From Candidatus Pacebacteria bacterium CG10_big_fil_rev_8_21_14_0_10_44_54 (GTDB lineage Bacteria; Patescibacteriota; Microgenomatia; UBA1400; PJMF01), in assembly GCA_002772695.1 (NCBI GenBank), contig PFDI01000003.1, forward strand, positions 11,914 through 75,913: a DNA stretch of 64,000 nt. The letters are read 5' to 3'. Each line of letters begins with the position of its first letter. Position 1 is the first letter of the stretch. Positions 1-29,377 of the stretch are shown one piece after another. The notes beneath the pieces were generated by a model. It was not told the origin of the DNA. It did no database searches and saw only the letters and a list, made by a program, of their open reading frames with translations. Both the position numbers and the translations under genes were made by a program.

Positions 1-653
1 CGACTCATTGTTTCAAGTATTTGGTCAGAGTGGATAGCTTCGGTTGGATCTGTCGCTAGCATAGTTGGCAAGTGAGGATAGTGAAGTCCTTCATGTTGAA
101 TTTTGGATGGCAACTTCTGATTAAATGCAAAAACTCTTCGCCAATGCCAGAATGAGTATTGGTTTCTCTGTGGACCAATATAATCAAAGTTCACAAATAA
201 TCCATCTGGTTGTAAAGAATTAGATAATATGTATAGCAATCGGTTGAGATACTGTACGTGATGCAAGGCTGCATTATTTACTATCAGATCAAACTCACCC
301 GCTTTAAAAGAAATGGTGTTGGCATCAGCCTGGAAGTATTGAATAGTACGTTTTCCCTTTTTGGATTCTGCTTCTGCTAGCAAATCTGCAGACCAATCAA
401 AAGAAACAGCTTGTTTGACAATTTTTTTATCTATAAACTCACGCGACAACCACCCATTGCCGTCACAGAGAAAAAGTGCTCTTTTGAATTGAAACGGGCT
501 CGGAGCAAACCGTTCCTGAAAATCTGTCGTCCACCATTTATTTTTATCACCAGTAAAATTTTGACACATATACTCCTGCACCTCTGGTAGATCATTCCAG
601 TACTGCCCTTGGTAGTACACTTTTGCATCGCTAGGGACTATTGTTTTTTTCAT
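1..653 (-). CDS. class I SAM-dependent methyltransferase (start codon at 651-653, 3' end beyond window edge; partial)
   Basis: Hand translation of the minus strand from the ATG complement at 651-653 gives an open frame to position 1 (MKKTIVPSDAKVYYQGQYWNDLPEV...LCDGNGWLSREF...FDLIVNNAALHHVQ...LQPDGLFV). It shows a Rossmann-fold methyltransferase motif I/II/III pattern. It is absent from the ORF track because it runs off the window. Confidence 0.55.
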   Translation of the reverse strand, partial: MKKTIVPSDAKVYYQGQYWNDLPEVQEYMCQNFTGDKNKWWTTDFQERFAPSPFQFKRALFLCDGNGWLSREFIDKKIVKQAVSFDWSADLLAEAESKKGKRTIQYFQADANTISFKAGEFDLIVNNAALHHVQYLNRLLYILSNSLQPDGLFVNFDYIGPQRNQYSFWHWRRVFAFNQKLPSKIQHEGLHYPHLPTMLATDPTEAIHSDQILETMS

Positions 654-764
654 AAAGTTACAAATAATGTATGTGTTAAGATTAATTTAAACTAATTTCA
701 AGAAATCAAACTGAAAAAAAAGCCTTTTGTCTCAATTATCATTGTAAATTATAACGGACTGCAT

Positions 765-2132
765 TTGCTCCGCAATTGTTTGAGTTCTATCTTCAAAAGC
801 AGTTATTCAAAAAGTAAATTTGAAGTCATCGTTGTGGACAATAACTCACACGATGGTTCATGTGCATTTATCAAAAAAAACTTCCCAAAAGTTACAATTA
901 TCCGTCTTAAAGAGAATGTGGGCTTTGCCATGGGAAATAACGAAGGCTATAAGCACGCTCGTGGTGAATATATTGCCTTGCTGAATAATGATACTGAAGT
1001 AGACAAAAATTGGCTAACTGAACTAGTTGCGGTAGCTCAAGACTCCAGGGTTGGCATTGTTGCATCAAAAATTTTGTTGCAAGTACCGTTTGTCGAAGTA
1101 TCTATTACAAGCAGTGTTGTACAGCAATCTGATCTTGATCAATCAACAAATTTTTCTCCACGCGGTGTCTTGATTGAGGACATTAGTTGTCCTAACTCTG
1201 ATTGTCGCGACCTCATTTGGTATTCGACAGGTTTTGACAAACAGAAGGTACTCAGTGGTGTTGGCTTGCGCTGGACAACGGGCAAGGCTACAGTATTGCT
1301 ACCTATTCTAGAGGAAAAGAACACGTTTTCATTTGTATTTCATGGTTATCCAAGTAACGACAGCCAACTTCCGATGAACGCTAAAGTATCTGTCAAAAAC
1401 AAAGAACTATGTCACTTTTCACTCTCTCCCAACTCTGTCTTTAATAAAAAGATTACTATAAATAAATCGACGTGTGCCGATAACCTTGTTTGGCTGGTTC
1501 AGAATGCCGGCAACCTGCTTCTCAAGGATGGTTATAGCAAAGATATCGGTAGTGTGACGAGGATCTTGGGAGGATCAGTCGAAGAATTTTATGAACCAGA
1601 TTCACAGTTTTTTTCCCAAGAAAGAAAGCTCGTTTCAGCTTGTGGAGCCGGGATGTTAATAAAGCGAGAAGTAATCGAAAAAATTGGGTTCTTTAACCAA
1701 CACTACTTTATGTACTACGAAGACATTGATTTTTGTCTGAGAGTTTGGAAACACGGTTGGGACATTGTATTTGCACCAAAGGCAATTATGCACCACACTC
1801 ATAGAGCCACGACTGGAAAAACAGAATCAAGCTTTTTTATCAGCATGATAGAGAAGAATCATCTATTTTTATTGCTCACTCATTTTTCGCTCAGCACATT
1901 TTTGCAAGAATATTTCCTCTTTGGCTGTCGCTTATTTGATGCAATCTTGAAACAATTTGTGTTTCGATTTAAGCATTGGGATAAATACCAGATTTGGAAA
2001 ATCAAAGCCTCTGGCAGACTTGATGCCTTCATCTCATTTCATAAAAAAATCTTTACTTTTATAAAAATTCGTTATTGGTGGAAATCTCGAGAAGTAAGAA
2101 ACTATAATCAACTAAAACACCATTTGTACTAA
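765..2132 (+). CDS. glycosyltransferase family 2 (GT2), with extended C-terminal region
   Basis: FEVIVVDNNSHDGS...NVGFAMGNNEGYK...YIALLNNDTEV (DXD) and a C-terminal ED..FCLR block. The canonical GT2 N-terminus SIIIVNYNG is encoded in frame upstream (about 732-764) of the first ATG/GTG/TTG codon, so the true start is probably a non-canonical codon near 705-735. Confidence 0.8.
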   Translation: MLRNCLSSIFKSSYSKSKFEVIVVDNNSHDGSCAFIKKNFPKVTIIRLKENVGFAMGNNEGYKHARGEYIALLNNDTEVDKNWLTELVAVAQDSRVGIVASKILLQVPFVEVSITSSVVQQSDLDQSTNFSPRGVLIEDISCPNSDCRDLIWYSTGFDKQKVLSGVGLRWTTGKATVLLPILEEKNTFSFVFHGYPSNDSQLPMNAKVSVKNKELCHFSLSPNSVFNKKITINKSTCADNLVWLVQNAGNLLLKDGYSKDIGSVTRILGGSVEEFYEPDSQFFSQERKLVSACGAGMLIKREVIEKIGFFNQHYFMYYEDIDFCLRVWKHGWDIVFAPKAIMHHTHRATTGKTESSFFISMIEKNHLFLLLTHFSLSTFLQEYFLFGCRLFDAILKQFVFRFKHWDKYQIWKIKASGRLDAFISFHKKIFTFIKIRYWWKSREVRNYNQLKHHLY

Positions 2133-2134
2133 AT

Positions 2135-3688
2135 ATGAAATCAAGTCATAAAACTGCTGGAATTTACAATAGATGGTTATTTACACTTGGTGGTGGAGAA
2201 CAAGTAACTTTTGCGTACGCAGAAGCCCTGAGAGATGCAGGTTATAAAACAACGCTTGTCACACATAAAAAAGTAGATGTAGAGTCTGCAGAAAAAAAAA
2301 TGGGGGTATCTCTCACAGATATTGAACTTCGTTATGAACCACTGCGTCCTGTAACAGAACTCTCTGGTATTTCACAAGAGTATGATTTGTTTATAAATAC
2401 CTCCTATCTTGATTACTTTCCCAACAGAAGTAGTAATGGATTTCTATCGGTTTTCTTTCCCGCTGAAATTTATCTATCTCTCTGGGAGTGGTGCAAACGA
2501 ACTATTTTTTTGCCCTCACTAAAGTTACTTTTTATTTACCCGACTGATTATTCTGGTTTTTCACATGATACATTTGAAGAAGGAAAAATTTGTAAGTGGC
2601 TTGGAGAGAGTTCGGAGATTTCATTTTCAAATCAGACTATTTACTCACTCGCTATTGAGCTGCACGTTCCAACTTTTGCTGTTTCGATAGTAGAATCACT
2701 GGTATTTTTTATAAACAAAAAAACCGTTTCTCCAGATAGAAAACGACTCAATCATACGACAAACACGCTTAGATATTTTTTTTGTAGCTCTGAGCCAATC
2801 GTAAATTTTGCTATAACACACAAAAAATGGAAGATACAGAAAATAAGCTTAGTAAAACTAACCATTCCTAAATGGCGATACTATTTGTACAACATATTTA
2901 AGCTTTTATTTCCAAAATGGGAAATGCGCCTTCATGGCGGTCCAGGTGTAACTTCACTCAGTGATATCCAATCATACAAAAGAATTATAACCATCAGCAA
3001 ATTTTGTCAGTACTGGATTAAGCAATATTGGGGTTTGGAAAGCGAGGTATTATATCCTCCAGTAAACACTAGTGTATTTTTGCCTGCCAAAAACAAGCAA
3101 AACTGGATATGCCATATTGGAAGATTTTTTGTTACAGGTCACTCAAAAAAGCAGCTCGAACTAATTAGAGTATTTAAAGAACTTGTTGACTCAAAACAAC
3201 TTATTGATTGGCAACTACATCTGATTGGATCTGTTCACGAAGGAGCAAACCACGAGGCATACTACAAAGCATGCTTGAACGAAGCTTTGGGGTATCCTAT
3301 CCAATTTCACTGCGAGGCTCCATTTGTAGAAGTTCGAGAAGTGCTCTCAAAAAGTAAGATATATTGGCATGCTACTGGTCTCGATGAAGACCAGAAAAAG
3401 CAACCTATTCTAATGGAACACTTTGGGATTACCACTGTGGAGGCTATGGCGTCTGGTTGTGTTCCTATTGTAATCAATGCAGGAGGACAACCTGAAATTG
3501 TCATCGCCGAATCAGGCTTTACTTGGAATAACCGAGAGGAACTAAAAGAATACACGGCACGAGTTGCAAACAACAGCGAGTTGCGACAACAACTTAGTAT
3601 AGCTGCAAAAAAGAGAAGCGCATACTTTAGTAAGAAAAAATTTCGTGAACGATTCCTAAAAATCCTTAAAAGCAATCAAAAAACTTAA
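2135..3688 (+). CDS. glycosyltransferase family 4 (GT1 superfamily, GT-B fold)
   Basis: N-terminal GGGEQVTFAYAEAL and C-terminal EHFGITTVEAMASGCVPIVINAGGQPEIV match the GT4 E-x7-E region. Confidence 0.75.
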   Translation: MKSSHKTAGIYNRWLFTLGGGEQVTFAYAEALRDAGYKTTLVTHKKVDVESAEKKMGVSLTDIELRYEPLRPVTELSGISQEYDLFINTSYLDYFPNRSSNGFLSVFFPAEIYLSLWEWCKRTIFLPSLKLLFIYPTDYSGFSHDTFEEGKICKWLGESSEISFSNQTIYSLAIELHVPTFAVSIVESLVFFINKKTVSPDRKRLNHTTNTLRYFFCSSEPIVNFAITHKKWKIQKISLVKLTIPKWRYYLYNIFKLLFPKWEMRLHGGPGVTSLSDIQSYKRIITISKFCQYWIKQYWGLESEVLYPPVNTSVFLPAKNKQNWICHIGRFFVTGHSKKQLELIRVFKELVDSKQLIDWQLHLIGSVHEGANHEAYYKACLNEALGYPIQFHCEAPFVEVREVLSKSKIYWHATGLDEDQKKQPILMEHFGITTVEAMASGCVPIVINAGGQPEIVIAESGFTWNNREELKEYTARVANNSELRQQLSIAAKKRSAYFSKKKFRERFLKILKSNQKT

Positions 3689-4350
3689 TTAGGCTTGGTT
3701 CCAACAAAAAATAACCAGTGATACCACTCAGTTTCATGCCAACTTGGATTAGACATTCTACTTGGATCTTGCCAATTAAGCGATCTTATTTTTCGCCAAC
3801 CTCGAATGGGGTTGGCATCTTCCAAATTAATAAATCCTGCTTTGGTAAACCAGCGTATTGCATCAGCTTTTGTCCACAACCAATGATGAACGTCATAGAT
3901 ATTTCTGTGACCACCCACGCTCCATTGTTGAAGCTGCTCTAGTTTAATTCGGTTCTTGGCCACAGACTGAGAAATCTTTTCAAAATCTGGCGTTACCATC
4001 ACAAAACGAGCCCCAGGACTCAACACCCTATATACCTCTTTCAGCACACTTGTAGTTGTGCCAATTTGCTTTTGTATTGCTGCAGAAGAAAACTCAGGGT
4101 GGCAAAAGTGCTCCATGACATGAACTGCCCTAATTTCTTGAGTGATAAAATTATCCGGAAATGGAAGCCAGCGGATATCGGCTAATATATCAACATCTTT
4201 TCCTGTTTGAATATCTAGATGGGTGTAGCCTGGTTCTGGATATTCTCCAGATCCCAAATCAAGTTTTGAAATTTTATCGGGATAGTTTCTGAGAACATAC
4301 TGTTTTGAGTGAAATCTTTTTTGATTCGTCATATAGCTTGATGATATCAT
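3685..4350 (-). CDS. class I SAM-dependent methyltransferase (Methyltransf_11-like)
   Basis: LDLGSGEYPEPGYTHLD...DVDILADIRWLPFPDNF...VHVMEHF. Its stop overlaps the stop of the upstream GT4 gene by 4 nt (convergent). Confidence 0.65.
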   Translation of the reverse strand: MISSSYMTNQKRFHSKQYVLRNYPDKISKLDLGSGEYPEPGYTHLDIQTGKDVDILADIRWLPFPDNFITQEIRAVHVMEHFCHPEFSSAAIQKQIGTTTSVLKEVYRVLSPGARFVMVTPDFEKISQSVAKNRIKLEQLQQWSVGGHRNIYDVHHWLWTKADAIRWFTKAGFINLEDANPIRGWRKIRSLNWQDPSRMSNPSWHETEWYHWLFFVGTKPN

Positions 4351-4358
4351 TGCGTCTG

Positions 4359-5987
4359 ATGAAACGTCATCTTTTTTTCAAGTATAAATTTTTTCAACAC
4401 TGGCTGTTATTTCTGGTGATTCCAATTTTTTTTCTTCTTTTGCTTCGCAACCCTTTTTCCAACCGCAACCTCATCGCAAACCTCGGACCATTCCCAGACG
4501 TATTTCATTACATCACGGGCGCGCAGTGTTTCCTCGATGGTCAAGGGTTCTCTCTTTGCAGGCATAGCGAGAAGATTGACACAAGTGTGCCGCCTCTGTA
4601 CTCGGCACTGCTTCTACCATTTCTTCTCATCAATAACGACCCCCGCATGTTTTACTTTCTCAACCTTATACTGGCAACTTCGAGCTTGTTTCTCATGTAT
4701 CTTATCCTAAAAAAAATAGTGGTTAGAAACACACTTATCTTTTTGGGACTAGTGCTCTATGTGACAAGCTACCTGACATACTGGTACCCGACACTGGCAA
4801 TGGCAGAAAACCTACTCCTGCCAATTGTTTTATCACTCTTCTTCCTGCTGCTATACAAACCAAACAAAGCAAGAGCGGCACTTTTTGGGGCACTGGCTGT
4901 TGGAACCTATGCAAGTAAGTACTCGGCAGCGCCGATTACGCTCGGGTTTTTAGCCTTGTATGTGTGGCATATTGTCGGTAGTAACAAAAAGGGGAGAATA
5001 AACCTCTTGAGTGTGCTAGCCATGTGCGCACTGCTCGCGATCAGTGTGACCCAAAGCAGAAGCATTGTCACCAAGGGTCTTGATTTTTTTCAAAATACTA
5101 TTATCGCGCAAGTTAACCAAAATATTCCTGATCCACAAGCAAGACCTGATGTATGGATTAGTGCAGAGTACTTCGGCAGAAACATTGTTTTGTACGCCAA
5201 AACACTTCTCGGTTATACCGTGCTGATCCTTTGGCATCGAGATAGTTTTCTTTTACAACCGCTCTCGATTCTTGGTTTGCTGGGTATTGCTTTGGGAATA
5301 GTCAGAAAAAGTCGGTATCGTTTTTTCTTCTCGTCAATAGTAATAATTTTGACTTTGCAGATCGTCACACTCTCGTTTTTTTATTCATTTGAGAGTCGGT
5401 ATGTCTTGTATCTTCTGCCACTACAAATTGTCGGAGTAGTTTTTGCAGTACGGTTGTTGGTAGAAGTAGTGGCAAAATACTTCCCACGCATTCCAAGTTC
5501 TATTCTTTCTGCCAGTGTAGTGCTGCTTATTTTGGGTCTATATGCACTCAGTTCGACACAGCGCCTCCGACACCAGGTTGTACTCAACCTAAAGTATAGT
5601 GAGTCACCCTGGTGGTATTTGTCAGTGCAAGAACTGAATGTATTTTTTTCTGAAAAGGGTGAGGAAATCCCATTTGTTATCACGATTGTTCCGACCTATT
5701 TTGTTGACTACTACACAAATGCAAACTACGAGATTCTTCCCCTATCAAACCAACAAAGCTTCGAAAATGACCTGTATATGCTGAGCAAGCCAGAGAGCTT
5801 GGAGTTGGAAAATTGGTTCGAAATACTCTTGAGAGAAAATAAAAAATTGTTCGTGATGAACTATGGTCTTTCAGCAGAGGCTGGCTATCAATATGCGTTT
5901 GACCATCTCGAAGAGCTATACAAGGTAACAAAGCTTACCGAAGGTTGCTACAATACGTGCAATATCTACTCGCTCGAACTCAGGTAG
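4359..5987 (+). CDS. polytopic membrane protein, GT-C-like (PMT/ArnT-like) putative glycosyltransferase; paralogous to the middle and C-terminal blocks of the adjacent 6001-9141 product
   Basis: More than 10 predicted TM helices. The N-terminal loop PDVFHYITGAQCFLDGQGF resembles the DE..Y..A motif of GT-C PMT/ArnT enzymes. The C-terminal block LFVMNYGL...CYNTCNIYSL aligns with LFLSDYGL...CYDQCALLRV of the 6001 product. The ORF-track start at 4305 overlaps the divergent gene, so an internal Met at 4359 is preferred. Confidence 0.5.
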   Translation: MKRHLFFKYKFFQHWLLFLVIPIFFLLLLRNPFSNRNLIANLGPFPDVFHYITGAQCFLDGQGFSLCRHSEKIDTSVPPLYSALLLPFLLINNDPRMFYFLNLILATSSLFLMYLILKKIVVRNTLIFLGLVLYVTSYLTYWYPTLAMAENLLLPIVLSLFFLLLYKPNKARAALFGALAVGTYASKYSAAPITLGFLALYVWHIVGSNKKGRINLLSVLAMCALLAISVTQSRSIVTKGLDFFQNTIIAQVNQNIPDPQARPDVWISAEYFGRNIVLYAKTLLGYTVLILWHRDSFLLQPLSILGLLGIALGIVRKSRYRFFFSSIVIILTLQIVTLSFFYSFESRYVLYLLPLQIVGVVFAVRLLVEVVAKYFPRIPSSILSASVVLLILGLYALSSTQRLRHQVVLNLKYSESPWWYLSVQELNVFFSEKGEEIPFVITIVPTYFVDYYTNANYEILPLSNQQSFENDLYMLSKPESLELENWFEILLRENKKLFVMNYGLSAEAGYQYAFDHLEELYKVTKLTEGCYNTCNIYSLELR

Positions 5988-6000
5988 CAACCAAGCAATA

Positions 6001-14691: not shown

Positions 14692-14693
14692 TT

Positions 14694-16258: not shown

Positions 16259-16277
16259 GCGTATACTGAGGGCAACT

Positions 16278-16862: not shown

Positions 16863-16867
16863 ATTCC

Positions 16868-22028: not shown

Positions 22029-22893
22029 GCCTGATTTAGAACTGATTTTTCTCAATTTTAATAGTGATTTCTGGATTGAAAAGGCACTAACTTCACTGCA
22101 AACCTTTTATCTAAAAAAAACCAAGTTGCAGGTCGCCATCACTGTTGTTGATAACAACAGCAGTGACAACTCACTACAGACGGTAGCAACCTGTTGCCCT
22201 AAGGCAAAAATTATTCGTCTCAAAGAAAATCTGGGTTTTGCTGGAGCTAATAATGCCGCCCTAACTCAGACGACGGCAAGATACACCATGCTGCTCAACT
22301 CGGATGTTGAACTAACAGCAGACTCAAATTTTGACGAACTTGTCTCATATATGGATACACACAAAAATGTTGCTGTTATAACACCCAAACTAACATTCTT
22401 TTCTGGCGCACTCGACCCTGCTTCACACCGTGGAGAGCCAACCATCTGGGCTTCAATCGCCTATTTTGCTCGACTCGAGCAATTATTTCCAAACTCAAAA
22501 CGATTTGCACAGTATCATCAAACATATAAAGATCTATCACAAATTCATGAGATAGACGCCTGTTCTGGTGCAGCACTACTGTCGCGCACCTCTCTTTATA
22601 ATAAAGTTGGTTTGCTAGATGATCGTTTTTTTATGTATGCCGAGGATCTTGATTGGTGTCGTCGTTTCAGAGAAGCGGGGTACTCGGTTGTATTTTATCC
22701 ACACGTTGCGCTGATTCACCATAAATATAAGTCTGGCATCAAAAATTCATCACAAAATATTGCTCAAAAAACCCAGTTTCACTTTTATAACACCATGCTA
22801 CAATACTACGACAAACACTATGCCAAAGAGTATCCATCTGTGGTACGCTGGTTGCTTAAGTATTTTATCGCGTTTAAGAAAGGCGGACTATGA
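22015..22893 (+). CDS. glycosyltransferase family 2
   Basis: VVDNNSSDNSL...MLLNSDVEL...YAEDLDWCRR. Confidence 0.8.
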   Translation: MQQNKPDLELIFLNFNSDFWIEKALTSLQTFYLKKTKLQVAITVVDNNSSDNSLQTVATCCPKAKIIRLKENLGFAGANNAALTQTTARYTMLLNSDVELTADSNFDELVSYMDTHKNVAVITPKLTFFSGALDPASHRGEPTIWASIAYFARLEQLFPNSKRFAQYHQTYKDLSQIHEIDACSGAALLSRTSLYNKVGLLDDRFFMYAEDLDWCRRFREAGYSVVFYPHVALIHHKYKSGIKNSSQNIAQKTQFHFYNTMLQYYDKHYAKEYPSVVRWLLKYFIAFKKGGL

Positions 22894-23327
22894 ACACCCA
22901 AACACTGCAATTTAAGATTGAAAATCTTAGAGCCACAACAATACAACGCACGCTCGAGGGCCTCTTTACTGTTGTCGCAAGCTTGTTTGTGACGGCCTTG
23001 CTGCCATCTTTGTTGATTAAATACTTCTATGCTAACGCTCAATTATTTGAACAACCAAAATTGCTCGAATATATCCCAGTTGCTACCTTTGCAATTTCTG
23101 GTGCCTACATCGTATTCGTAATCGTCGGCAACTTCTCGAGAGGAGCAAAAATTCGCCAAGCAGAATCTGAGCTAGCGCTCTCAGAGTCGATGACAGCTAA
23201 TGATCTCGGTACGACACAAGAGGAGCTGGCTGAGCTAGAAAAAATTGTTGACAACGCTCTAGCAAAACCAAATAAATCAAAACGCAGTAACACAAAAAAG
23301 TCGACTCGAAAAAAGAGCGCTAAGTAA
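22890..23327 (+). CDS. hypothetical small membrane protein (2 TM, basic C-terminal tail)
   Basis: ORF with two hydrophobic segments and a Lys/Arg/Ser-rich C-terminus, translationally coupled to the flanking GT genes. Confidence 0.4.
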   Translation: MNTQTLQFKIENLRATTIQRTLEGLFTVVASLFVTALLPSLLIKYFYANAQLFEQPKLLEYIPVATFAISGAYIVFVIVGNFSRGAKIRQAESELALSESMTANDLGTTQEELAELEKIVDNALAKPNKSKRSNTKKSTRKKSAK

Positions 23328-23331
23328 TCAG

Positions 23332-24429
23332 ATGCCTCGAGTTGGTATCGATTGCCGACTAGCAGGCCTCAATCACGCTGGAATTGGACGGTATATTTCT
23401 TGTCTTGTGCCTCGGGTTATTTCTTTACTCGAGAATAAAGCAGATATTGTACTTTTTTGTGCCACAAAGCAACAAGCTCATGAACTAAACCCAAATGAGT
23501 CAGCCTGGGTTGCGATAGTGCAAACACCGATCAAGCATTACTCGCTTGCCGAACAAACGCAATTTCTTGCTGTGCTGCGGCAACAATCACTCGATGTACT
23601 ACACGTCCCACACTTTAATGTACCGTTTTTCTATCGGGGAAAATTTGTCGTCACTATTCATGACTTGTTATGGCATGAGCAACGGGGGCTACATGTCACG
23701 ACACTCAAACCAATAATTTACTGGTTGAAGTATTTTTTTTATAGACACGTTGTTGCCAACACTATCGCGCGGGCAAAAACAATATTTGTACCGTCAAAAA
23801 CAATTGCCAATCAAGTGCTCAAAACATTTTCAGACGCTAAAAATAAAATAATTGTTACCTATGAAGGAGTAAGTGATGCTTTTGCAAAACCGAAATTCAT
23901 AGCTCAACGAAAAAAAAATACTTTACTCTACGTTGGCTCACTTTACCCACACAAAAACATACAACTTGTCCTGAAGCTGCTACAACGGCAACCAGAAATT
24001 CGGCTGGAAATTGTCACTGCACGATCTGCTTTTGTGACAAAAGTAAAAAAACGCATCGTTGCACTAGGACTCAAAAATCAAGTTATATTTTATATTTCAA
24101 TCACTGATCAAGAACTCGCCAAGAAATATCAACAAGCGACCGCACTTATTCAGCCCTCACTATCCGAAGGATTTGGTTTGACTGGTCTTGAAGCACTCCG
24201 TCAAGGAACGCCATTGCTCGCATCTGACATTCCTATCTTTCATGAGATTTACCAACAACAAGCTGTCTTTTTTGATCCACATAGCGTCAAATCTCTCCAA
24301 TCTGCCTGGGATTCAATCGAGAATAAAATGACACAACTGCAATTACCAAAACAATTTTTCGAAAAATACGATTGGGACAAGCTTGCAAAACAAACCACTG
24401 ATGTCTACCTCACCACACTCAAAAACTAA
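23332..24429 (+). CDS. glycosyltransferase family 4
   Basis: LSEGFGLTGLEALRQGTPLLASDIPIFHEIY. Confidence 0.8.
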   Translation: MPRVGIDCRLAGLNHAGIGRYISCLVPRVISLLENKADIVLFCATKQQAHELNPNESAWVAIVQTPIKHYSLAEQTQFLAVLRQQSLDVLHVPHFNVPFFYRGKFVVTIHDLLWHEQRGLHVTTLKPIIYWLKYFFYRHVVANTIARAKTIFVPSKTIANQVLKTFSDAKNKIIVTYEGVSDAFAKPKFIAQRKKNTLLYVGSLYPHKNIQLVLKLLQRQPEIRLEIVTARSAFVTKVKKRIVALGLKNQVIFYISITDQELAKKYQQATALIQPSLSEGFGLTGLEALRQGTPLLASDIPIFHEIYQQQAVFFDPHSVKSLQSAWDSIENKMTQLQLPKQFFEKYDWDKLAKQTTDVYLTTLKN

Positions 24430-25639
24430 ACCCAACGTTTGTCTCGTTTACGATAGAGTGACCACCAAGTATGGTGGAGCCGAGTGCCTTTTGCAGCACT
24501 TACTTGATCTTTTTCCAGCAGCACCACTCTACACAGCTGTTTATAATCCAAACAGAACACCTTGGGTAATACCAAGCAGGGTGAGATCTTCCTTTGCCAG
24601 TCGCTGGTGGTTTGTACGTAGGTGGTATCAATTTTTTTCTCCTATCTTTCCGCTTGTATTTGAACAGTTTGACTTGTCGACATTCGATATCATTATCTCG
24701 ATAAGCAGCGCAGAAGCAAAAGGAGTTCTTACTTCTCCCAAGCAACTACATATAAGCTATCTCTTCAGCCCACCAAAGTACCTTGCCAAGAATAACGCTG
24801 CCTATCTATATTCATATAAATTATTAACAATTCCTGCCATAAGATCACTGGCAGAACTACCACTTCGCTACCTTCGTTGGTGGGATCAAGCTGCTGCCGC
24901 TCGCCCTGATTACACCATTCCTATTTCAAATACAATTGCAAAACAGATAAGTGGTAGTTACACAAACATCATGCTGGAGCCCATCTATCCTCCTATTGCT
25001 GTACCACCGCTTAGCAAAATAAAACAGGCAATGAGACTCACAACAGCACAATACTTTCTATCACTTTCTCGCCTAGTCTGGTACAAGCGAGTAGACCTTG
25101 CAGTGAGTGTCGCACAAAAAACCGGAGACTTGCTACTCATTGCCGGTGAGGGAGTGATGAAGAAGCAGTTGCTGAAACAAGCAGATCGGCGTGGGGCAAT
25201 CCGCCAAAAAAATGAGCTTATTTCAGACTGCATAAGACGTGCGATCAAACATAATCGAAACATCATTTTTCTCAATACTGTATCTGAAAAAGAAAAAACA
25301 GCGCTCCTCACTCACGCTCAGGCAACCCTACAGTTGGGAAAAGAAGATTTCGGCATTGTAGCAATCGAAAGCCTCGGCCACGAAACTCCCGTCATACTAT
25401 TTGCAGATTCAGGTGCGGCGGAAGTACTTAGAAACAAACAAGTTGGAATACTCCTTGCATCGCAAAACACCAAGGCCCTTGAAAGGGCATTTTATGAAAT
25501 TAAAAAGATGACTTTTTCACCCTCATACTTGAGAAAATTAGCATTATCATTCTCTCCTGAAATATACAAAAGGAGGATGCAAAAAATAGTGTATGATGTA
25601 TGGGCTATTCACAAAAATGGACACAAAAATGACAAATAA
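24401..25639 (+). CDS. glycosyltransferase family 4-like
   Basis: N-terminal KYGGAECLL and C-terminal EDFGIVAIESLGHETPVILFADSGAAEV. The track start 24383 overlaps the upstream gene, so the internal Met is chosen. Confidence 0.55.
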   Translation: MSTSPHSKTKPNVCLVYDRVTTKYGGAECLLQHLLDLFPAAPLYTAVYNPNRTPWVIPSRVRSSFASRWWFVRRWYQFFSPIFPLVFEQFDLSTFDIIISISSAEAKGVLTSPKQLHISYLFSPPKYLAKNNAAYLYSYKLLTIPAIRSLAELPLRYLRWWDQAAAARPDYTIPISNTIAKQISGSYTNIMLEPIYPPIAVPPLSKIKQAMRLTTAQYFLSLSRLVWYKRVDLAVSVAQKTGDLLLIAGEGVMKKQLLKQADRRGAIRQKNELISDCIRRAIKHNRNIIFLNTVSEKEKTALLTHAQATLQLGKEDFGIVAIESLGHETPVILFADSGAAEVLRNKQVGILLASQNTKALERAFYEIKKMTFSPSYLRKLALSFSPEIYKRRMQKIVYDVWAIHKNGHKNDK

Positions 25640-26732
25640 CAAGCATGTGTATGCCGTACTCCTAGCAGGTGGTGGTGGCACAAGACTCTGGCCTAAATCC
25701 CGCGAAAAAACGCCCAAACAGTTTCTCAAACTATTTGGCGATGAAACAATGCTGCAATACACCGCACGCAGAATCACAAAATTAGTTGATTGGGACAAAA
25801 TTATCGTTGTAACCAACACCAAATACCAAGCTGAAGTTCTCAAGCAACTACCAAAAATTCCCAAATCAAATGTCATTGCTGAACCCAAGAAAAAAGACAC
25901 GGCACTTGCCATGTTGGTTGGAACACTCTACGCTCGCTCACTTGATGAAAATGCGGTAATCATCAATTCAGCCTCAGATCACGTTGTAACTGATGAAGCA
26001 GAATTTGCCCGCGTTATGAATGCAGCAGTTCGCGTTGCAACAAACAAGCAGTCATTGGTAACCGTTGGCATCACTCCAACCTATCCTGCAACTGGCTTTG
26101 GATACATCAAAATTGCCAATGATATCGAGCGACTCGACAGGGGATTAACACTCTTTTCAGTAAACAGCTTTACCGAGAAACCAAATCACTCAACAGCACG
26201 CGCGTTCATTTCTACAGGTCGTTATTTTTGGAATGCCAATATGTATGTTTGGGCAGCCGAAACATTGCTCACTGCTTTTAAACAACATTTGCCCGAAATG
26301 TTTGCGGCGACCCAAAAAATACAACAGGCGACTCGTACAGATTTTGTTCAGCTCTTACCCCAAGTCTACACCGAGTCTAATGCTATTTCAATTGATTATG
26401 CGATATCAGAGAAGGCTGACAATCTCGTCCTTATTCCTGGAGATTTTGGCTGGAACGATGTTGGTGACTGGAAAGTTGTATATGAGCTCGAGAAAAAAGA
26501 CATTCAGGGGAATGTCGTGTTGGACGAATCGACCAAAGCTCCAGTACTTGCGATTGACTCTACCAATAACCTGGTGCATTCTAATAAGCGTCTAGTTGCT
26601 ATGCTTGGCATAAGAGATACTATGGTGATCGACACCGACGAAATTCTCATGATTATCCCAAAAGGCAGAAGTCAGGATGTCAAAAAAATTATTGAGCAAT
26701 TAAAGGCAGAAAATAGAACCGAGTATCTATAA
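25629..26732 (+). CDS. manC: mannose-1-phosphate guanylyltransferase-like sugar nucleotidyltransferase
   Basis: VYAVLLAGGGGTRLWPKSREKTPKQFL. The start could alternatively be 25593 or 25617. Confidence 0.75.
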   Translation: MTNNKHVYAVLLAGGGGTRLWPKSREKTPKQFLKLFGDETMLQYTARRITKLVDWDKIIVVTNTKYQAEVLKQLPKIPKSNVIAEPKKKDTALAMLVGTLYARSLDENAVIINSASDHVVTDEAEFARVMNAAVRVATNKQSLVTVGITPTYPATGFGYIKIANDIERLDRGLTLFSVNSFTEKPNHSTARAFISTGRYFWNANMYVWAAETLLTAFKQHLPEMFAATQKIQQATRTDFVQLLPQVYTESNAISIDYAISEKADNLVLIPGDFGWNDVGDWKVVYELEKKDIQGNVVLDESTKAPVLAIDSTNNLVHSNKRLVAMLGIRDTMVIDTDEILMIIPKGRSQDVKKIIEQLKAENRTEYL

Positions 26733-26739
26733 GACTTTC

Positions 26740-27360
26740 ATGACGTATTTAGCTCAAAAGCGCCTTCTTGATCTTGCCGTTGCTCTCGGATTAAGTATGC
26801 TTTTTTTACCCGTCTGGTTGGTAGTGCCAGTTTTAATTTTTCTTGATTCAGGCAAACCTATTTTTTTTGTCCATAAACGAGTTGGCCTAAACGGTCGCGA
26901 ATTTTATCTCTACAAATTTCGCTCAATGATAATTGGTGCTGACGACATGCTGCACAAACACGACAAAAAATTACTCAGAGAATTTAAAAGCAACGACTGG
27001 AAAATTCCCAATGATCCCCGCATAACAAAGTTGGGAAAAATACTTCGCTCACTCACCATCGATGAGTTTCCACAGTTGCTCAATGTGTTGCGAGGCGAAA
27101 TGTCTATGGTTGGTCCTCGCGCTTATGTACGTAAAGAGCTCGATGAACAAAGCGAGCGATATCCCGAAACGAAATCATATATTACAAAAATTCTCAGTGT
27201 AAAGCCAGGTATTTCTGGACCCTGGCAAACCAGTGGTCGCAACGAGATCCCTTTTGCCCAACGAGCCAAGATGGATGCGCAGTATGCAAGCAATCCTTCT
27301 ATCTGGCGAGACATTCTTATTTTACTCAAGACACCTGGAGCTATGATTTCAAAGTGGTGA
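26740..27360 (+). CDS. small monotopic phosphoglycosyl transferase (bacterial sugar transferase family, PglC/WbaP C-terminal-like); initiating enzyme
   Basis: FFVHKRVGLNGREFYLYKFRSM...DEFPQLLNVLRGEMSMVGPRA. At 206 aa it has a single N-terminal TM segment. Confidence 0.85.
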   Translation: MTYLAQKRLLDLAVALGLSMLFLPVWLVVPVLIFLDSGKPIFFVHKRVGLNGREFYLYKFRSMIIGADDMLHKHDKKLLREFKSNDWKIPNDPRITKLGKILRSLTIDEFPQLLNVLRGEMSMVGPRAYVRKELDEQSERYPETKSYITKILSVKPGISGPWQTSGRNEIPFAQRAKMDAQYASNPSIWRDILILLKTPGAMISKW

Positions 27361-27390
27361 TTGGAGTGCCAGTCATATATTTGCTATACT
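27361..27390 (+). promoter_or_regulatory. putative sigma70-type promoter: -35 TTGGAG, 18-nt spacer, extended -10 TGcTATACT; ATG 11 nt downstream
   Basis: The motif is read directly from the sequence. The same TGnTATACT then about 10 nt then ATG arrangement recurs at rplU, ileS, lemA and the acetyltransferase gene. Confidence 0.4.
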
Positions 27391-27400
27391 GAGAACTCAT

Positions 27401-29377
27401 ATGCCACTCGAAGCCATACACCAGTCACAAATAAAAAATCAAGCAGCAACAATCTCTCAAACAACTGAAGAAGCGGCTCAAAAAACAGGCTTGCGCACTT
27501 GGTGGCTCGCCCGGAAAACATGGCAAAAAATTGCAATAGCTGGACTCATCGTCACCACAATTCTCATAGGCATTCTCGTTTCTCTTGTATTCAAAACCTA
27601 TCAAGTATTGCAGTCAATGCAACTTCAGGCAGAATCTACCAAGCTAATCGGCCAAGAAACATACGGACACTTCAAAGCACAAAACTTACCACCAGTTCAG
27701 GAAAACCTCGTAAAACTAGACGAGCACTTACTTGAGATGAGAGAAAGTTATCAGCAACTTTCATTCTATAAGTACTTTCCAATAATTCGCAATTACTACC
27801 TTGATGGCGAACACGCATTTGCCGCAGCTCAATCTGGCTTAGCCGCTGCTAAAAAGTCTGTCGACGCACTAGTACCTTATGCTGACGTGCTTGGCTTCTC
27901 GGGGGAAGGTACATTCCAAGGCGGTACTGCCGAAGATCGATTGAAAATCGTGCTCGAGACACTCGATAAAATTTCACCCATTTTGGATGAAATCGCAGCA
28001 GACCTAAAATCTACAGAATCGGAGCTTGCGCTCATCTCACCAACACGATATCCGGAAAGCATTCAGAACATAGCGATCAGATCGCAAATCTTGCAAGCAC
28101 AAAATCTGAGTTCGGCGGCTGTCGACGCAGTAACAGAATTCAGACCAGTTATCGAACAACTACCAAGTATCGCCGGCGGACGCGGTGAGCGCAAAAAATA
28201 TATCGTTCTGTTTCAAAATAACGCTGAGCTCCGCCCCACCGGTGGTTTCTTAACTGCGTATGCGGTGATAAACGTCGAGAATGGCAAAGTTGAACCAGAG
28301 AAATCAGATGATATTTATGAACTCGATCAAAAATACCGCAGCAAATTGCCTATTCCAGAGGAACTTGGTAGATATCTCACAACAGAAAAAAACTGGAATC
28401 TGAGAGACATGAACACTTCGCCTGATTTCAAAGTATCAATGGATCAGTTTTTCCCCGAGTACAGCAGTTTACCGAGTGAACCAGATAATGTTGATGGCAT
28501 TATTGCTGTTGATACCAAAGTTTTGACTGACCTTTTGACCGTACTTGGCCCAGTAGAAGTACCGGGTTATGGACTGTTTTCAAGCAAAATAGACCCACGC
28601 TGCGATTGTCCAGAAATTATTTACATCCTGTCCGAAATTATTACCAGACCAACTCCGTATCTTCGTGAAGATCGCAAGGGCGTTATTGGTCCATTGATGC
28701 GATCTGTCCTTACCAAAGCATACTCAAGCCCAAAAACAGTTTGGCCAGCATTATTTCAAACGGGTATGGATAATATTGCCGGTAGACATATCCAGTTTTA
28801 TTTTCTTGACGAAAAATCCCAAGCCGCCGCAGAGGCGATACATGCAGCTGGTCGTCTCGAGTCAAAACAAGATGTTGATTTCTTGGCAATTGTCAATGCC
28901 AATCTTGCTGGAGCGAAGTCAAATTTATTTGTAACATATGAGGTAGAGCAGGTAGTTTCTGCACCCCAAGATGGATTTATTACAAAACAACTAGAGATTA
29001 CCTACAAAAATTCTAGAAAATCCGACAACTGTAATCTCGAAGCTGGCCTACTCTGTCTCAACTCTACACTCAAAGACTGGACCAGAATTTATGTTCCCGC
29101 AGGGAGTGAGCTCATCTCCTCTGAGGGTTTTAAAGAATCGGCTCGTGTCACCGAAGAGCTTGGCTTCTCTGTCATAAATGGCTTCTTTACACTTGAACCA
29201 CTGGGAACCGCTAAAATTAAGCTAGAATACAAAATTCCCTACAATGCAACAGACAGGTATCAACTGAGGGTTTGGAAACAAGGTGGCATTGACACTTTCC
29301 CACTACTACTTGAGACAGATGGCAATCAGGAAAAACTCCAAATTTCTAAAGATACAACCTACTCAATCGCTTTTTAA
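27401..29377 (+). CDS. DUF4012-like membrane-anchored protein
   Basis: An N-terminal TM segment and the segment LFQNNAELRPTGGFLTAYAV, recalled as characteristic of the DUF4012 family (from memory, not verified). Confidence 0.5.
   Translation: MPLEAIHQSQIKNQAATISQTTEEAAQKTGLRTWWLARKTWQKIAIAGLIVTTILIGILVSLVFKTYQVLQSMQLQAESTKLIGQETYGHFKAQNLPPVQENLVKLDEHLLEMRESYQQLSFYKYFPIIRNYYLDGEHAFAAAQSGLAAAKKSVDALVPYADVLGFSGEGTFQGGTAEDRLKIVLETLDKISPILDEIAADLKSTESELALISPTRYPESIQNIAIRSQILQAQNLSSAAVDAVTEFRPVIEQLPSIAGGRGERKKYIVLFQNNAELRPTGGFLTAYAVINVENGKVEPEKSDDIYELDQKYRSKLPIPEELGRYLTTEKNWNLRDMNTSPDFKVSMDQFFPEYSSLPSEPDNVDGIIAVDTKVLTDLLTVLGPVEVPGYGLFSSKIDPRCDCPEIIYILSEIITRPTPYLREDRKGVIGPLMRSVLTKAYSSPKTVWPALFQTGMDNIAGRHIQFYFLDEKSQAAAEAIHAAGRLESKQDVDFLAIVNANLAGAKSNLFVTYEVEQVVSAPQDGFITKQLEITYKNSRKSDNCNLEAGLLCLNSTLKDWTRIYVPAGSELISSEGFKESARVTEELGFSVINGFFTLEPLGTAKIKLEYKIPYNATDRYQLRVWKQGGIDTFPLLLETDGNQEKLQISKDTTYSIAF

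Follow-up and report, generated by a model that had tools for sequence, protein, structure and literature searches.

A lineage-wide glycan gene array in Microgenomates-type CPR bacteria and its possible role in building a wall-anchored heteroglycan

We analysed a continuous stretch of 64 kb of DNA (the window), whose first 29 kb or so are dominated by genes for glycan synthesis. Searches of Pfam, NCBIfam and the PDB bear out the gene families that a sequence-only reading of this DNA had named there. The features, with the matches that define them, are as follows.

1..653, minus strand: SAM-dependent methyltransferase (Pfam Methyltransf_11, E 1.3e-12), cut by the window start so that the N-terminal 217 aa lie in the window
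834..2132, plus strand: GT2a, GT2 domain split by an insertion (Glycos_transf_2, E 7e-23)
2135..3688, plus strand: GT4a, 517 aa (Glycos_transf_1, E 5e-19)
3685..4350, minus strand: small methyltransferase-like ORF, weakly assigned (Methyltransf_23, E 2e-4, under the cut-off)
4305..5987, plus strand: GTCx560, polytopic GT-C-like protein with about 11 transmembrane helices and a C-terminal ectodomain (hhalign)
6001..9141, plus strand: 1046-aa fusion protein (Wzy_C, 40.2 bits; Metallophos, E 2.4e-3)
9147..10115, minus strand: UDP-glucuronate decarboxylase (UDP-xylose synthase, UXS; phmmer against PDB, human UXS1, E 2e-95)
10374..11876, plus strand: PMT2a, GT-C protein, PMT_2/ArnT-like (PMT_2, 26.3 bits, cut-off 26.1)
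11882..13036, plus strand: GT4b (Glycos_transf_1, E 1e-28)
13043..14209, plus strand: GT4c (Glycos_transf_1, E 1.5e-21)
14206..16258, plus strand: ruvC, ruvA and ruvB, housekeeping passengers outside the glycan system (Pfam RuvC, RuvA_N, RuvB_N)
16251..16862, plus strand: AcT, WcaF-like hexapeptide O-acetyltransferase (Hexapep, E 5e-16; WcaF family, E 2.7e-29)
16850..17764, plus strand: GT2b (Glycos_transf_2, E 1.2e-22)
17769..19391, plus strand: Wzy540, 540-aa WaaL-like protein, paralogous to the fusion's N-terminal module but a separate protein (Wzy_C, 31.2 bits, slightly below the 31.7 cut-off)
19381..20826, plus strand: PMT2b, GT-C protein (PMT_2, 35.1 bits; PMT, 27.4 bits)
20823..22028, plus strand: GT4d (Glyco_trans_1_4, E 4e-25; TIGR03087, 231 bits)
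22015..22893, plus strand: GT2c (Glycos_transf_2, E 1.5e-16)
22890..23327, plus strand: 145-aa protein with two transmembrane helices, conserved in the array
23332..24429, plus strand: GT4e (Glycos_transf_1, E 1.5e-25)
24383..25639, plus strand: GT4f (Glycos_transf_1, E 1.5e-16)
25593..26732, plus strand: ManC, mannose-1-phosphate guanylyltransferase yielding GDP-mannose (NTP_transferase and ManC beta-helix; PDB 2x5s)
26740..27360, plus strand: PGT, 206-aa monotopic Bac_transf phosphoglycosyltransferase, a priming polyprenyl-phosphate sugar-1-phosphate transferase (Bac_transf, 194.8 bits)
27401..29377, plus strand: DUF4012 protein, candidate glycopolymer phosphotransferase
55412..56638, plus strand: Wzx-type flippase (Polysacc_synt_3, E 1.6e-55)
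56604..57254, plus strand: short GT2 (Glycos_transf_2, E 4e-8)
57211..58407, plus strand: 398-aa polytopic Wzy-like ORF (Wzy_C, E 0.008, 16.4 bits, sub-threshold)

Within the range of the array we count three GT2 and six GT4 glycosyltransferases, two PMT_2 GT-C proteins and a third GT-C-like one, two Wzy_C proteins, an acetyltransferase, a UDP-xylose synthase, ManC, a single small phosphoglycosyltransferase and the DUF4012 protein. The sequence-only reading had listed four GT2, about six GT4, three GT-C/PMT-like and three Wzy_C proteins. All six GT4 were recovered, but its fourth GT2 (56604..57254) lies outside the range, its third GT-C protein (GTCx560) is recognised by profile comparison only, and its third Wzy_C protein is the sub-threshold ORF at 57211..58407. 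Of the two methyltransferases that it proposed, one is clear (reading frame 3–653) and the other weak, with homologues in five loci only, all in close relatives. Searches of the window found no polyprenyl-phosphate-sugar synthase and no UDP-glucose dehydrogenase.

The array extends upstream beyond the window. The edge methyltransferase has a complete form of 341 aa in the same organism, where it adjoins a 662-aa PMT-like protein; a minus-strand PMT-like protein of 660–680 aa follows the methyltransferase here and in relatives, and in one relative (L007, 64% identity) an ABC-2 transporter pair comes next. Neighbouring plus-strand genes are spaced by −14 to +40 bases, which agrees with the co-oriented, coupled genes described earlier. 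However, co-orientation and tight packing extend over the entire window, including recO, glyS and the dcw cell-wall cluster, and are thus unspecific as evidence for a single operon.

Several soluble enzymes can be assigned with some precision. UXS matches human UXS1 over its full length with 323 bits, against 165 bits for the next family (phmmer, PDB), and ManC matches the GDP-mannose pyrophosphorylase of Thermotoga maritima (PDB 2x5s) with an E-value of 2e-64. GT4b and GT4c are paralogues (30% identical), and GT2a is annotated as 432 aa in public contigs. The 145-aa protein gave no match in Pfam or NCBIfam and occupies the same position in 18 loci.

The fusion protein consists of a WaaL-fold Wzy_C module (residues 1–490), a truncated GT-C-like membrane module with a Cys-containing ectodomain (residues 500–810) and a degenerate purple-acid-phosphatase-like ectodomain of the calcineurin fold (residues 830–1046). 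Its AF2 model has a pLDDT of 86.6; Foldseek matches the Wzy_C module to WaaL (7tpg_B; E 3.3e-6, target-normalised TM-score 0.64) and the C-terminal ectodomain to purple acid phosphatase 1qfc (E 1e-2), although the phosphoesterase motifs are degenerate. More than 1000 homologues were found, all of Patescibacteria type, and residues D398, R358 and Cys544/554/803/807 are invariant. Wzy540 is 40% identical to the fusion over 512 aa (E 2e-109), and its residues D445, R405 and R241 are all present in 48 of 48 orthologues. The invariant Arg of the array proteins (R358 in the fusion, R405 in Wzy540) corresponds to R288 of Escherichia coli WaaL, and K238 of the fusion and R241 of Wzy540 to WaaL R215. 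At the position of the WaaL catalytic His, both proteins carry an invariant Asp. This Asp, the three-part fusion and the predicted LCP fold of DUF4012 (below) are the unusual features of the array.

Both PMT_2 proteins conserve acidic loop residues: D44-E45, past the first transmembrane helix of PMT2a, is invariant in 48 of 48 orthologues, as are D28 and D36 of PMT2b in 41 of 41. Asp65 of GTCx560 is kept in 13 of 14. GTCx560 has no match in Pfam or NCBIfam, and its tie to the PMT_2 family is one of profile–profile comparison only (hhalign against the PMT2b family, 92.5%, E 5e-7). It is also a paralogue of the fusion's middle module (hhalign 100%; BLASTP to the fusion, E 6e-17).

PGT, described earlier as a PglC-type initiating transferase, is indeed a small Bac_transf priming enzyme and shows the Asp-Glu dyad in the motif IDEFPQ. 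Its best PDB match, however, is the catalytic domain of WbaP (142 bits) rather than PglC (98 bits). The adjoining DUF4012 gene encodes a protein with a predicted N-terminal membrane anchor, a long helical stalk, an LCP-like (LytR-CpsA-Psr) alpha/beta core and a C-terminal beta-sandwich. Two independent structure searches agree on the LCP-like predicted fold, a likeness at the level of fold only (9–13% identity); Pfam LytR_cpsA_psr and a PDB sequence search gave no match. LCP enzymes link polyprenyl-PP-bound polymers to peptidoglycan, and the predicted fold suggests that a polyprenyl-PP-linked polymer is attached to the wall. In the EPS locus of Bifidobacterium longum, too, a DUF4012 gene lies beside that for the priming transferase (PMC5412050). 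For 1266 CPR genomes, canonical LCP proteins are on record (PMC6744442 Supplementary Data 1), which suggests that CPR bacteria make wall-attached glycopolymers.

An identical locus is found in the Crystal-Geyser-type MAG GCA_009991455.1, and relatives carrying the locus are named Pacebacteria, Woesebacteria or Microgenomates, in agreement with the CPR-like host supposed earlier. Comparison across relatives covered 60 species-level loci from Microgenomates/'Pacebacteria'-type CPR, and 54 of them follow the gene order of the window strictly. Median identity to the window proteins is 68% for AcT, 67% for PGT, 61% for ManC, 60% for both GT4d and UXS and 58% for DUF4012, compared with 66% for RuvB, 45% for RuvC and 43% for RuvA; in rate of divergence the glycan genes do not exceed the Ruv proteins encoded among them. 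Strain-variable O-antigen and capsule loci show the opposite behaviour. The region is a lineage-wide core gene array of Microgenomates-type CPR, inherited vertically, and not a mobile island, against the 'super-island' of the sequence-only reading.

The ruvCAB genes, which the sequence-only reading did not mention, are embedded at the same array position in most lineages. Downstream, the array is followed by recO, glyS and the dcw cluster, both here and in a distant species.

We put at about even the chance that the locus encodes a pathway, shared across the lineage, by which a heteroglycan of mannose and xylose is assembled on a polyprenyl carrier and anchored to the wall. ManC and UXS, both assigned by strong homology, would supply GDP-mannose and UDP-xylose, and PGT would load a hexose-1-phosphate onto polyprenyl-phosphate, as its homology indicates. 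Judging from their families, the six GT4 and three GT2 enzymes may extend the lipid-linked glycan in the cytoplasm, and it may be decorated by the WcaF-like acetyltransferase and by one or two methyltransferases. Export could use the upstream ABC-2 transporter or the Wzx at 55.4 kb, and the choice between these two would be a guess. Outside the cell, three to five GT-C enzymes with invariant acidic loop motifs would add sugars from polyprenyl-phosphate donors, and the two WaaL-fold enzymes, with Asp replacing His, may polymerise or ligate polyprenyl-PP-linked blocks. By its predicted fold and gene adjacency, DUF4012 might then transfer the completed polymer off its lipid carrier onto peptidoglycan. 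The analogue is the secondary cell-wall polymer system of Bacillus anthracis, in which Wzy/WaaL-clan proteins are proposed to act ahead of an LCP ligase (PMC6030368); block transfer would resemble the role proposed for WpaA and WpaB. Literature searches found no paper that characterises a system of this kind in CPR, as the sequence-only reading had supposed.

That reading had itself favoured en-bloc protein O-glycosylation, in which the Wzy_C proteins would serve as O-oligosaccharyltransferases for S-layer, pilin or other surface proteins and the PMT_2 proteins would add O-linked sugars. LCP enzymes are able to glycosylate protein as well, for example in Actinomyces oris, and conservation of the glycan would be in keeping with general protein glycosylation too. 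The array matches the parts list of Gram-positive S-layer glycosylation (slg) clusters, in which a priming enzyme of WbaP type and soluble glycosyltransferases occur with a capping methyltransferase, an ABC transporter (Wzm/Wzt) and WsaB or WsfB as the Wzy_C transferase (PMC2943079); a methyltransferase and an ABC-2 transporter lie just upstream of the array. The WaaL fold is likewise common to PglL-type transferases (PMC3643930). Yet where the array proteins have the invariant Asp, WaaL and every Wzy_C O-oligosaccharyltransferase that has been tested need a His (PMC3643930, PMC9829042), and PglL_A, Wzy_C_2 and TPR were undetected in both Wzy_C proteins even at E-values up to 5, whereas WsfB and PglL contain a TPR motif (PMC2943079). 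Genes for pglL often adjoin those of their targets (PMC3643930), but no candidate acceptor gene was found beside either Wzy_C gene. Nor do the PMT_2 proteins contain PMT_4TMC and MIR (Pfam), the hallmarks of true protein O-mannosyltransferases, which speaks against the O-mannosylating role proposed earlier. We regard protein glycosylation as somewhat unlikely.

The array could also comprise two or more separate, merely neighbouring glycoconjugate pathways: an upstream one (ABC transporter, methyltransferase, GT2a, GT4a, GTCx560, fusion, UXS, PMT2a, GT4b and GT4c) for a membrane-anchored lipoglycan, and a downstream one (AcT, GT2b, Wzy540, PMT2b, GT4d–f, GT2c, ManC, PGT and DUF4012) for a wall polymer or glycoprotein glycan. 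Each half has Wzy_C, GT-C, GT4 and GT2 genes, with paralogy across the halves, and ruvCAB lies between them in most species; GC content is lower in the first 4 kb (0.37–0.38 vs 0.43–0.45), and the stretch from GT4a to the fusion varies between lineages. Synteny in this lineage is high in general and reaches past the glycan genes, so collinearity alone is no proof of one shared pathway. We nevertheless consider a division quite unlikely: the 29 kb contain a single priming phosphoglycosyltransferase, wherever a locus is long enough to reveal both halves, both are present, and in three loci (L073, L076 and L078) ruvCAB is missing and the halves directly abut, which supports the array as one unit. 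The last alternative is a horizontally acquired island of the ordinary, strain-variable kind, for a capsule, an exopolysaccharide or an O-antigen-like polymer, in which a Wzy polymerase and a ligase take part. Such islands usually contain Wzx, Wzy_C and a priming transferase along with many glycosyltransferases, and the GC content of the array is slightly lower at its 5' end. Such an origin is contradicted by the near-perfect synteny and the housekeeping-like divergence of the glycan genes, and it is extremely improbable given also the fixed position of ruvCAB in most lineages. Pfam searches of the window found no genes of mobile elements within the array or adjoining it, and tRNA genes are 31 kb distant.

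The proposed wall-glycan pathway may include the unit at 55412..58407, 26 kb downstream. The sequence-only reading had placed a Wzx and a further Wzy_C protein there: the flippase is clear, whereas the 398-aa Wzy-like ORF is sub-threshold and shows no profile relation to Wzy540. The unit is possibly accessory to the main array.

We assigned the genes of the glycan array (window positions 1–29.4 kb) by Pfam, NCBIfam and PDB-sequence searches. Nearly all of the window is coded on the plus strand with little space between genes, and its GC content is about 0.43.

Gene order of the glycan array and its downstream flank
initiation codon at 653, minus: SAM methyltransferase, truncated by the window start
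then GT2a and GT4a, glycosyltransferases
3685–4350, minus: methyltransferase-like ORF (weak match)
4305–5987, plus: GTCx560, a 560-aa polytopic protein without a Pfam match
6001–9141, plus: the fusion, a 1046-aa Wzy_C protein with a GT-C-like middle module and a phosphatase-like ectodomain
9147–10115, minus: UXS, UDP-xylose synthase (human UXS1, E 2e-95)
10374–11876, plus: PMT2a, a PMT_2 GT-C protein
then GT4b and GT4c, glycosyltransferases
14206–16258, between GT4c and AcT: RuvC, RuvA, RuvB
16251–16862: AcT, a WcaF-like acetyltransferase
then GT2b, a glycosyltransferase
17769–19391, plus: Wzy540, a 540-aa Wzy_C protein
19381–20826, plus: PMT2b, a PMT_2 GT-C protein
then GT4d, GT2c, a 145-aa protein with two transmembrane helices, GT4e and GT4f
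then ManC (Thermotoga maritima GDP-mannose pyrophosphorylase, E 2e-64)
26740–27360: PGT, a 206-aa Bac_transf priming enzyme
27401–29377: DUF4012 protein, the end of the array
downstream: recO, a class II aminoacyl-tRNA synthetase and a complete dcw cell-wall cluster

The gene inventory of the sequence-only reading is correct by these searches, with the single omission of ruvCAB inside the array. The 'third Wzy_C' protein, at 57.2 kb, is only a sub-threshold match (E 0.008), and profile comparison finds no relation to the other two. Positions 55412–58407 form a separate small unit of a Wzx flippase, a short GT2 enzyme and a 398-aa polytopic ORF, which has an Asn at the catalytic His position.

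The priming enzyme PGT matches Bac_transf with 194.8 bits over its 206 residues, has a single hydrophobic segment at residues 16–45 and contains the sequence IDEFPQ with the Asp-Glu dyad. Its PDB matches are WbaP (142 bits) and PglC (98 bits), and it is a small monotopic phosphoglycosyltransferase of PglC-like architecture (PF02397). NCBIfam gave no equivalog-level name for any array glycosyltransferase or membrane protein, and sugar specificities are therefore not assignable. Against TIGR03087, the 'stp1' glycosyltransferase of PEP-CTERM/XrtA exopolysaccharide systems, GT4d reaches 231 bits (E 2.5e-68); this is below the cut-off of 317 bits, yet far above every other array glycosyltransferase.

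The two minus-strand genes at 3685–4350 and 9147–10115 are inserted in the plus-strand array with near-zero spacers. The methyltransferase-like ORF shares 4 bases with the end of GT4a, and 8 bases separate its start from that of the next plus-strand gene (public-contig call); UXS lies 5 bases past the fusion gene. A 75-aa ORF (10150–10377, plus strand) between UXS and PMT2a is annotated in all public copies of the locus and has a 59-aa counterpart in L007, a 64%-identity relative, with no Pfam match on record. The GC content is 0.37–0.38 in window positions 1–4000 (methyltransferase, GT2a and GT4a), compared with 0.43–0.45 in the remaining array. The stretch from GT4a to the fusion is the lineage-variable part; one relative (L008), for example, has an extra DUF6311 protein and other membrane proteins here. 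A scan of positions 1–20 kb found promoter-like sites at a level not above that of shuffled sequence, and terminator-like sites mostly within genes, so that it does not define operons.

An exact-protein look-up found the identical locus in GCA_009991455.1 and in several JGI and ENA metagenomes. The fusion has more than 1000 homologues, the named ones from Pacebacteria, Woesebacteria, Roizmanbacteria, the Microgenomates group and the Patescibacteria group. A one-genome-per-species scan gave at least 561 relatives; 74 loci with 10-kb flanks were taken, and every window protein was run against them by tblastn. Among the 60 loci with at least five array genes, 54 are strictly collinear with the window, and most of the other six are labelling artefacts between the two Wzy_C paralogues. 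Median identities to the window proteins are 68% for AcT, 67% for PGT, 61% for ManC, 60% for both GT4d and UXS, 58% for the DUF4012 protein, 49% for Wzy540 and 42% for the fusion. The embedded Ruv proteins have comparable values (RuvB 66%, RuvC 45% and RuvA 43%), indicating that the glycan genes evolve like housekeeping genes, which is the opposite of what is seen for O-antigen, capsule and EPS islands.

The ruvCAB genes are embedded at one fixed place in most species. In three loci (L073, L076 and L078) they are missing, GT4c is followed directly by the acetyltransferase and the two glycan halves abut; the Ruv genes thus ride along within a single locus as passengers. In a distant species, recO, glyS, mraZ and mraW again come after the array, and the L086 counterpart of the class II aminoacyl-tRNA synthetase after recO bears a GlyRS domain. 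The whole segment is a conserved cell-envelope neighbourhood. It also reaches upstream beyond the window start: in the same organism a 662-aa protein follows the methyltransferase on the minus strand, and L007 has a 680-aa equivalent with a weak PMT match (E 2e-4, below the cut-off), with an ABC-2 permease and ATPase pair behind it. Pfam searches found no integrase or transposase among the window genes. The earlier term 'super-island' is not supported, and a horizontally acquired, strain-variable polysaccharide island does not fit the collinearity, the housekeeping-like divergence and the lack of these mobility genes.

One full array (L083, CP011212.1; locus GC 0.366, RuvB 66%) is titled 'candidate division TM6 bacterium GW2011_GWF2_28_16'. 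This title was not read as a sign that the array has spread beyond CPR, since GC content and protein identities match those of Pacebacteria loci. The label looks unreliable, and many other MAG titles read 'uncultured Pseudomonadales' for clear Patescibacteria.

CPR enrichment of several of these families is already known from the lists of Méheust et al. 2019, which contain a Wzy_C family (706 aa on average; 1657 versus 122), two PMT_2 families and DUF4012, the last in 1300 CPR genomes and 8 non-CPR bacterial genomes (PMC6744442 Supplementary Data 1). The conserved arrangement and the Asp variant and LCP-like fold described below are mentioned in no paper that we found, and a search of the CPR, Patescibacteria and Microgenomates literature on O-antigen ligase, glycosyltransferase, cell envelope and protein glycosylation returned nothing relevant.

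The fusion matches Wzy_C (PF04932) with 40.2 bits against a cut-off of 31.7 bits, and Wzy540 falls marginally under it with 31.2 bits. Wzy540 is 40% identical to fusion residues 17–479 over 512 aa. We modelled the fusion with AlphaFold (AF2) from a 46-sequence alignment (pLDDT 86.6, pTM 0.81). The best PDB match of the model in Foldseek is the O-antigen ligase WaaL (7tpg_B; E 3.3e-6, probability 1.00, target-normalised TM-score 0.64), with which it shares a predicted multi-helix membrane fold and a large outward-facing loop.

Functional residues common to WaaL and PglL are Arg215, Arg288 and His338 (E. coli WaaL numbering), the loop arginines corresponding to Arg224 and Arg298 in PglL (PMC3643930). 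The Arg288 equivalent, mapped by motif register, is invariant (Arg358 in the fusion and Arg405 in Wzy540) and lies in the segment GIRLDTLWPQAL ('G-x-R-L...W/Y'). The Arg215 position, taken from a low-confidence hhalign alignment, is Lys238 in the fusion (27/30) and Arg241 in Wzy540 (48/48). The catalytic His (WaaL H338, PglL H349, TfpM H286) is essential in every tested Wzy_C oligosaccharyltransferase (PMC9829042). We mapped this position by Pfam HMM coordinates, where E. coli WaaL 205–354 covers positions 6–146 and fusion 229–416 covers positions 7–148, together with motif register; global hhalign alignments of the CPR Wzy_C profiles to the single E. coli WaaL sequence had less than 5% probability and were not used. 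His338 falls opposite Asp398 in the fusion and Asp445 in Wzy540, and neither protein carries the catalytic His of the Wzy_C/WaaL superfamily. The signature H-N-x9-G-x-x-G reads T-D-N-N-Y-L-R-T-L-G-E-T-G-L-L-G here, with the spacing retained, and the Asp is invariant in the orthologues (46/46, 30/30 and 48/48). Both proteins are thus WaaL-fold enzymes of a distinct branch. They further differ from WaaL and other Wzy_C proteins by many private invariant polar residues (e.g., STMNRE and GGHYD), and by the GT-C-like module and phosphatase-like ectodomain carried by one paralogue. A lipid A-core acceptor should be absent from the host, judging from the Gram-positive-type envelope described for CPR.

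Fusion residues 500–810 are homologous to GTCx560 (BLASTP E 6e-17; hhalign 100%). GTCx560 is in turn tied to the PMT_2 type by hhalign only, through the PMT2b family (92.5%, E 5e-7). The link of the middle module to GT-C enzymes rests on this hhalign path, as Foldseek alone fails to place the module (ArnT, E 0.09, probability 0.25), and its transmembrane region is about 260 residues shorter than that of the stand-alone paralogue. By the positive-inside rule, the loop with the invariant residues Cys544 and Cys554 and everything after residue 676 would face outward. A calcineurin-like fold is weakly indicated for residues 830–1046 by matches to Pfam Metallophos (E 2.4e-3), to SbcD in the PDB profile search (E 0.17) and to rat purple acid phosphatase in Foldseek (E 1e-2). 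The metal-binding motifs are eroded, with S-N-R-F in place of D-x-H in motif I and two His positions retained in about half of the homologues. This part of the protein is thus more probably a binding or scaffold ectodomain than an active phosphatase, and for the same reasons a role in undecaprenyl-pyrophosphate recycling was set aside. One fusion homologue is named 'YfhO family' by NCBI.

PMT2b and PMT2a both pass the PMT_2 (PF13231) cut-off of 26.1 bits, with 35.1 and 26.3 bits, and are mutually related (94.7%). All three stand-alone GT-C proteins have conserved acidic residues just past the first transmembrane helix: D44-E45 in PMT2a (48/48), D28 and D36 in PMT2b (41/41) and D65 in GTCx560 (13/14). 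From this position the acidic loop is predicted to face outward, and the conservation is consistent with putatively active enzymes that would use polyprenyl-phosphate sugar donors outside the membrane. PMT-like proteins had been taken for possible protein O-mannosyltransferases. PMT (PF02366) has a partial match in PMT2b only (residues 98–217, 27.4 bits), and Pfam finds neither PMT_4TMC (PF16192) nor MIR in any array protein, so the features of true protein O-mannosyltransferases are missing. The set resembles the actinobacterial GT-C lipoglycan/arabinogalactan pathways and three-component systems (GT2, flippase and a GT-C enzyme such as YfhO or ArnT) in its several PMT_2/ArnT-like GT-C proteins with invariant Asp/Glu, its GT4 enzymes and its GDP-mannose supply. 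It differs from them in that neither a polyprenyl-phosphate-sugar synthase, including one for polyprenyl-phosphate-mannose, nor a GtrA-type flippase was found in the window, and in that the array GT-C proteins are at or just above the Pfam threshold or have no match.

No useful match came from PDB sequence searches with the fusion-family and DUF4012 profiles or with PMT2a and PMT2b; only structure-based searches were informative. The model of the DUF4012 protein (pLDDT 81.2) consists of a membrane anchor, a helical stalk of about 220 residues, an alpha/beta core and a beta-sandwich. A structure search returned LCP structures with figures of 10.0 for 2XXP (Cps2A), 9.8 for 3OKZ, 9.7 for 3PE5, 9.6 for 4OBM, 9.0 for 9GN3 (MsrR), 8.9 for 6UEX (LcpA), 8.8 for both 3OWQ and 5V8C (A. 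oris LCP) and 8.5 for both 6UF6 (TagU) and 3MEJ (YwtF). In an independent Foldseek search the top matches were again LCP structures, led by 3PE5 (E 1.5e-3) and 3TEP (E 1.7e-3), with six others. The core is therefore predicted to have the LCP alpha/beta fold. By sequence, only DUF4012 (PF13196) was found in the protein, with no match to PF03816 (LytR_cpsA_psr), and the PDB-sequence profile search gave no LCP match at E ≤10. Residues R278, R335, D336, D371, R425 and K426 of the core are invariant. Like LCP enzymes, the protein has a single N-terminal membrane anchor with an extracytoplasmic predicted catalytic domain; the stalk and the C-terminal beta-sandwich are additions relative to Cps2A (2XXP), LcpA (6UEX) and TagU (6UF6).

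LCP enzymes move polyprenyl-pyrophosphate-linked polymers onto peptidoglycan, which agrees with the titles of 2XXP and 6UF6. The DUF4012 gene lies 40 bases 3' of the priming transferase, just as cpsA is found beside the priming transferase in streptococcal cps loci. The EPS locus of Bifidobacterium longum 105-A likewise has a priming transferase gene followed by DUF4012 (PMC5412050). The idea that DUF4012 replaces a missing LCP enzyme in CPR was dropped, since PMC6744442 Supplementary Data 1 records canonical LytR_cpsA_psr (LCP) proteins for 1266 CPR genomes; DUF4012 is thus an additional family.

The system belongs to polyprenol-linked glycoconjugate assembly. Strong homology indicates that the pathway would start with the supply of GDP-mannose and UDP-xylose and with priming on polyprenyl-phosphate. 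By family membership, nine GT-A or GT-B enzymes would then extend the glycan in the cytoplasm, with O-acetylation and methylation. Export may proceed through the upstream ABC-2 transporter or the distal Wzx. The GT-C enzymes would then make their additions outside the cytoplasm, the two WaaL-fold enzymes would transfer or polymerise the blocks and, finally, the LCP-like DUF4012 protein would carry out phosphotransfer to peptidoglycan. From export onward, the steps are deduced from fold and motifs, from gene adjacency and by analogy with the secondary cell-wall polymer pathway of Bacillus anthracis (PMC6030368). In that system (TagO/TagA, flippase), the two Wzy/WaaL-clan proteins WpaA and WpaB are proposed to polymerise and ligate the lipid-linked repeat on the outer side of the membrane, before an LCP-type enzyme links the polymer to peptidoglycan; this polymer is a conserved part of the envelope and not a variable antigen (PMC6030368). 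The array likewise combines two Wzy/WaaL-clan proteins with a predicted LCP-fold protein, the activities of WpaA and WpaB being themselves only proposed. In contrast to B. anthracis, the array proteins belong to PF04932 rather than PF13425, priming is by a Bac_transf enzyme rather than one of the TagO/MraY type, and neither the GT-C enzymes nor the fusion architecture has an equivalent there.

One conserved pathway that makes a wall-anchored envelope heteroglycan is the reading with the best support, and we give it an about even chance of being correct. The sequence-only reading had instead proposed en-bloc protein O-glycosylation, which we consider unlikely. Its parts list does mirror that of S-layer glycosylation (slg) clusters (PMC2943079): like those of Geobacillus stearothermophilus and Paenibacillus alvei (WsaP/WsfP, Wzm/Wzt, WsaE and WsaB/WsfB), the locus combines a WbaP-type priming enzyme and soluble glycosyltransferases with genes for a methyltransferase, an ABC-2 transporter and a Wzy_C-type transferase. 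LCP enzymes can also glycosylate proteins. Against this reading, the Wzy_C proteins lack, besides the catalytic His, matches to PglL_A (PF15864), Wzy_C_2 and the TPR found at the C-terminus of PglL and WsfB, in Pfam at E ≤0.01 and also at E ≤5, the C-terminal extension of the fusion being GT-C-like and phosphatase-like rather than TPR. No gene for an acceptor protein (pilin, S-layer protein or lipoprotein) was found within the 29 kb, where all neighbours are enzymes, membrane proteins or Ruv proteins, nor in the 60 related loci. Unlike the slg clusters, the array also has no S-layer gene, adds four to five GT-C enzymes and an LCP-like protein, and is conserved over a class-level lineage instead of being strain-specific.

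Two co-located pathways in place of a single one seem less probable still; the glycan halves abut where ruvCAB is missing. A conventional variable island is highly improbable in view of the collinearity. Extending the wall-anchored heteroglycan reading, we tentatively propose, as a possible but on balance doubtful generalisation, that Microgenomates-type CPR, and perhaps most CPR (family counts, PMC6744442), share a lineage-defining wall-anchored mannose/xylose heteroglycan that would be made by an Asp-type WaaL/Wzy_C branch and attached by DUF4012 as an unrecognised LCP-like family of glycopolymer ligases. If this is true, the array would correspond, in CPR, to the pathways for teichoic acid or arabinogalactan.

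CPR make up a large share of bacterial diversity and live attached to other cells, and to our knowledge their surface chemistry is essentially unknown. With its 24 genes retained one for one in dozens of species, and with a rate of change as low as that of DNA-repair genes, the glycan pathway is a strong candidate for part of the core envelope in the surveyed Microgenomates-type CPR. As such it is a target in host attachment and phage recognition, and for enrichment or labelling. Its interest lies in lineage-wide conservation in an uncultured radiation and in three testable molecular oddities: a WaaL-fold family with Asp in place of the essential His; a natural fusion of ligase-like, GT-C-like and phosphatase-like modules; and a predicted LCP fold for DUF4012, a family of no known function that is also present in bifidobacterial EPS loci.

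Two further genes lie downstream of the array. A CofD/YvcK-like gene (PF01933, E 1e-73) at 36868–37848 is situated in the dcw cluster, flanked by two Mur ligase genes. At 59027–59740 (minus strand), a 237-aa protein of bacterial Ig-like and Glucodextran_B-type domains, possibly a small surface protein, adjoins a HAD hydrolase and a tRNA cluster (Thr, Gly and Asp at 60220–60594).
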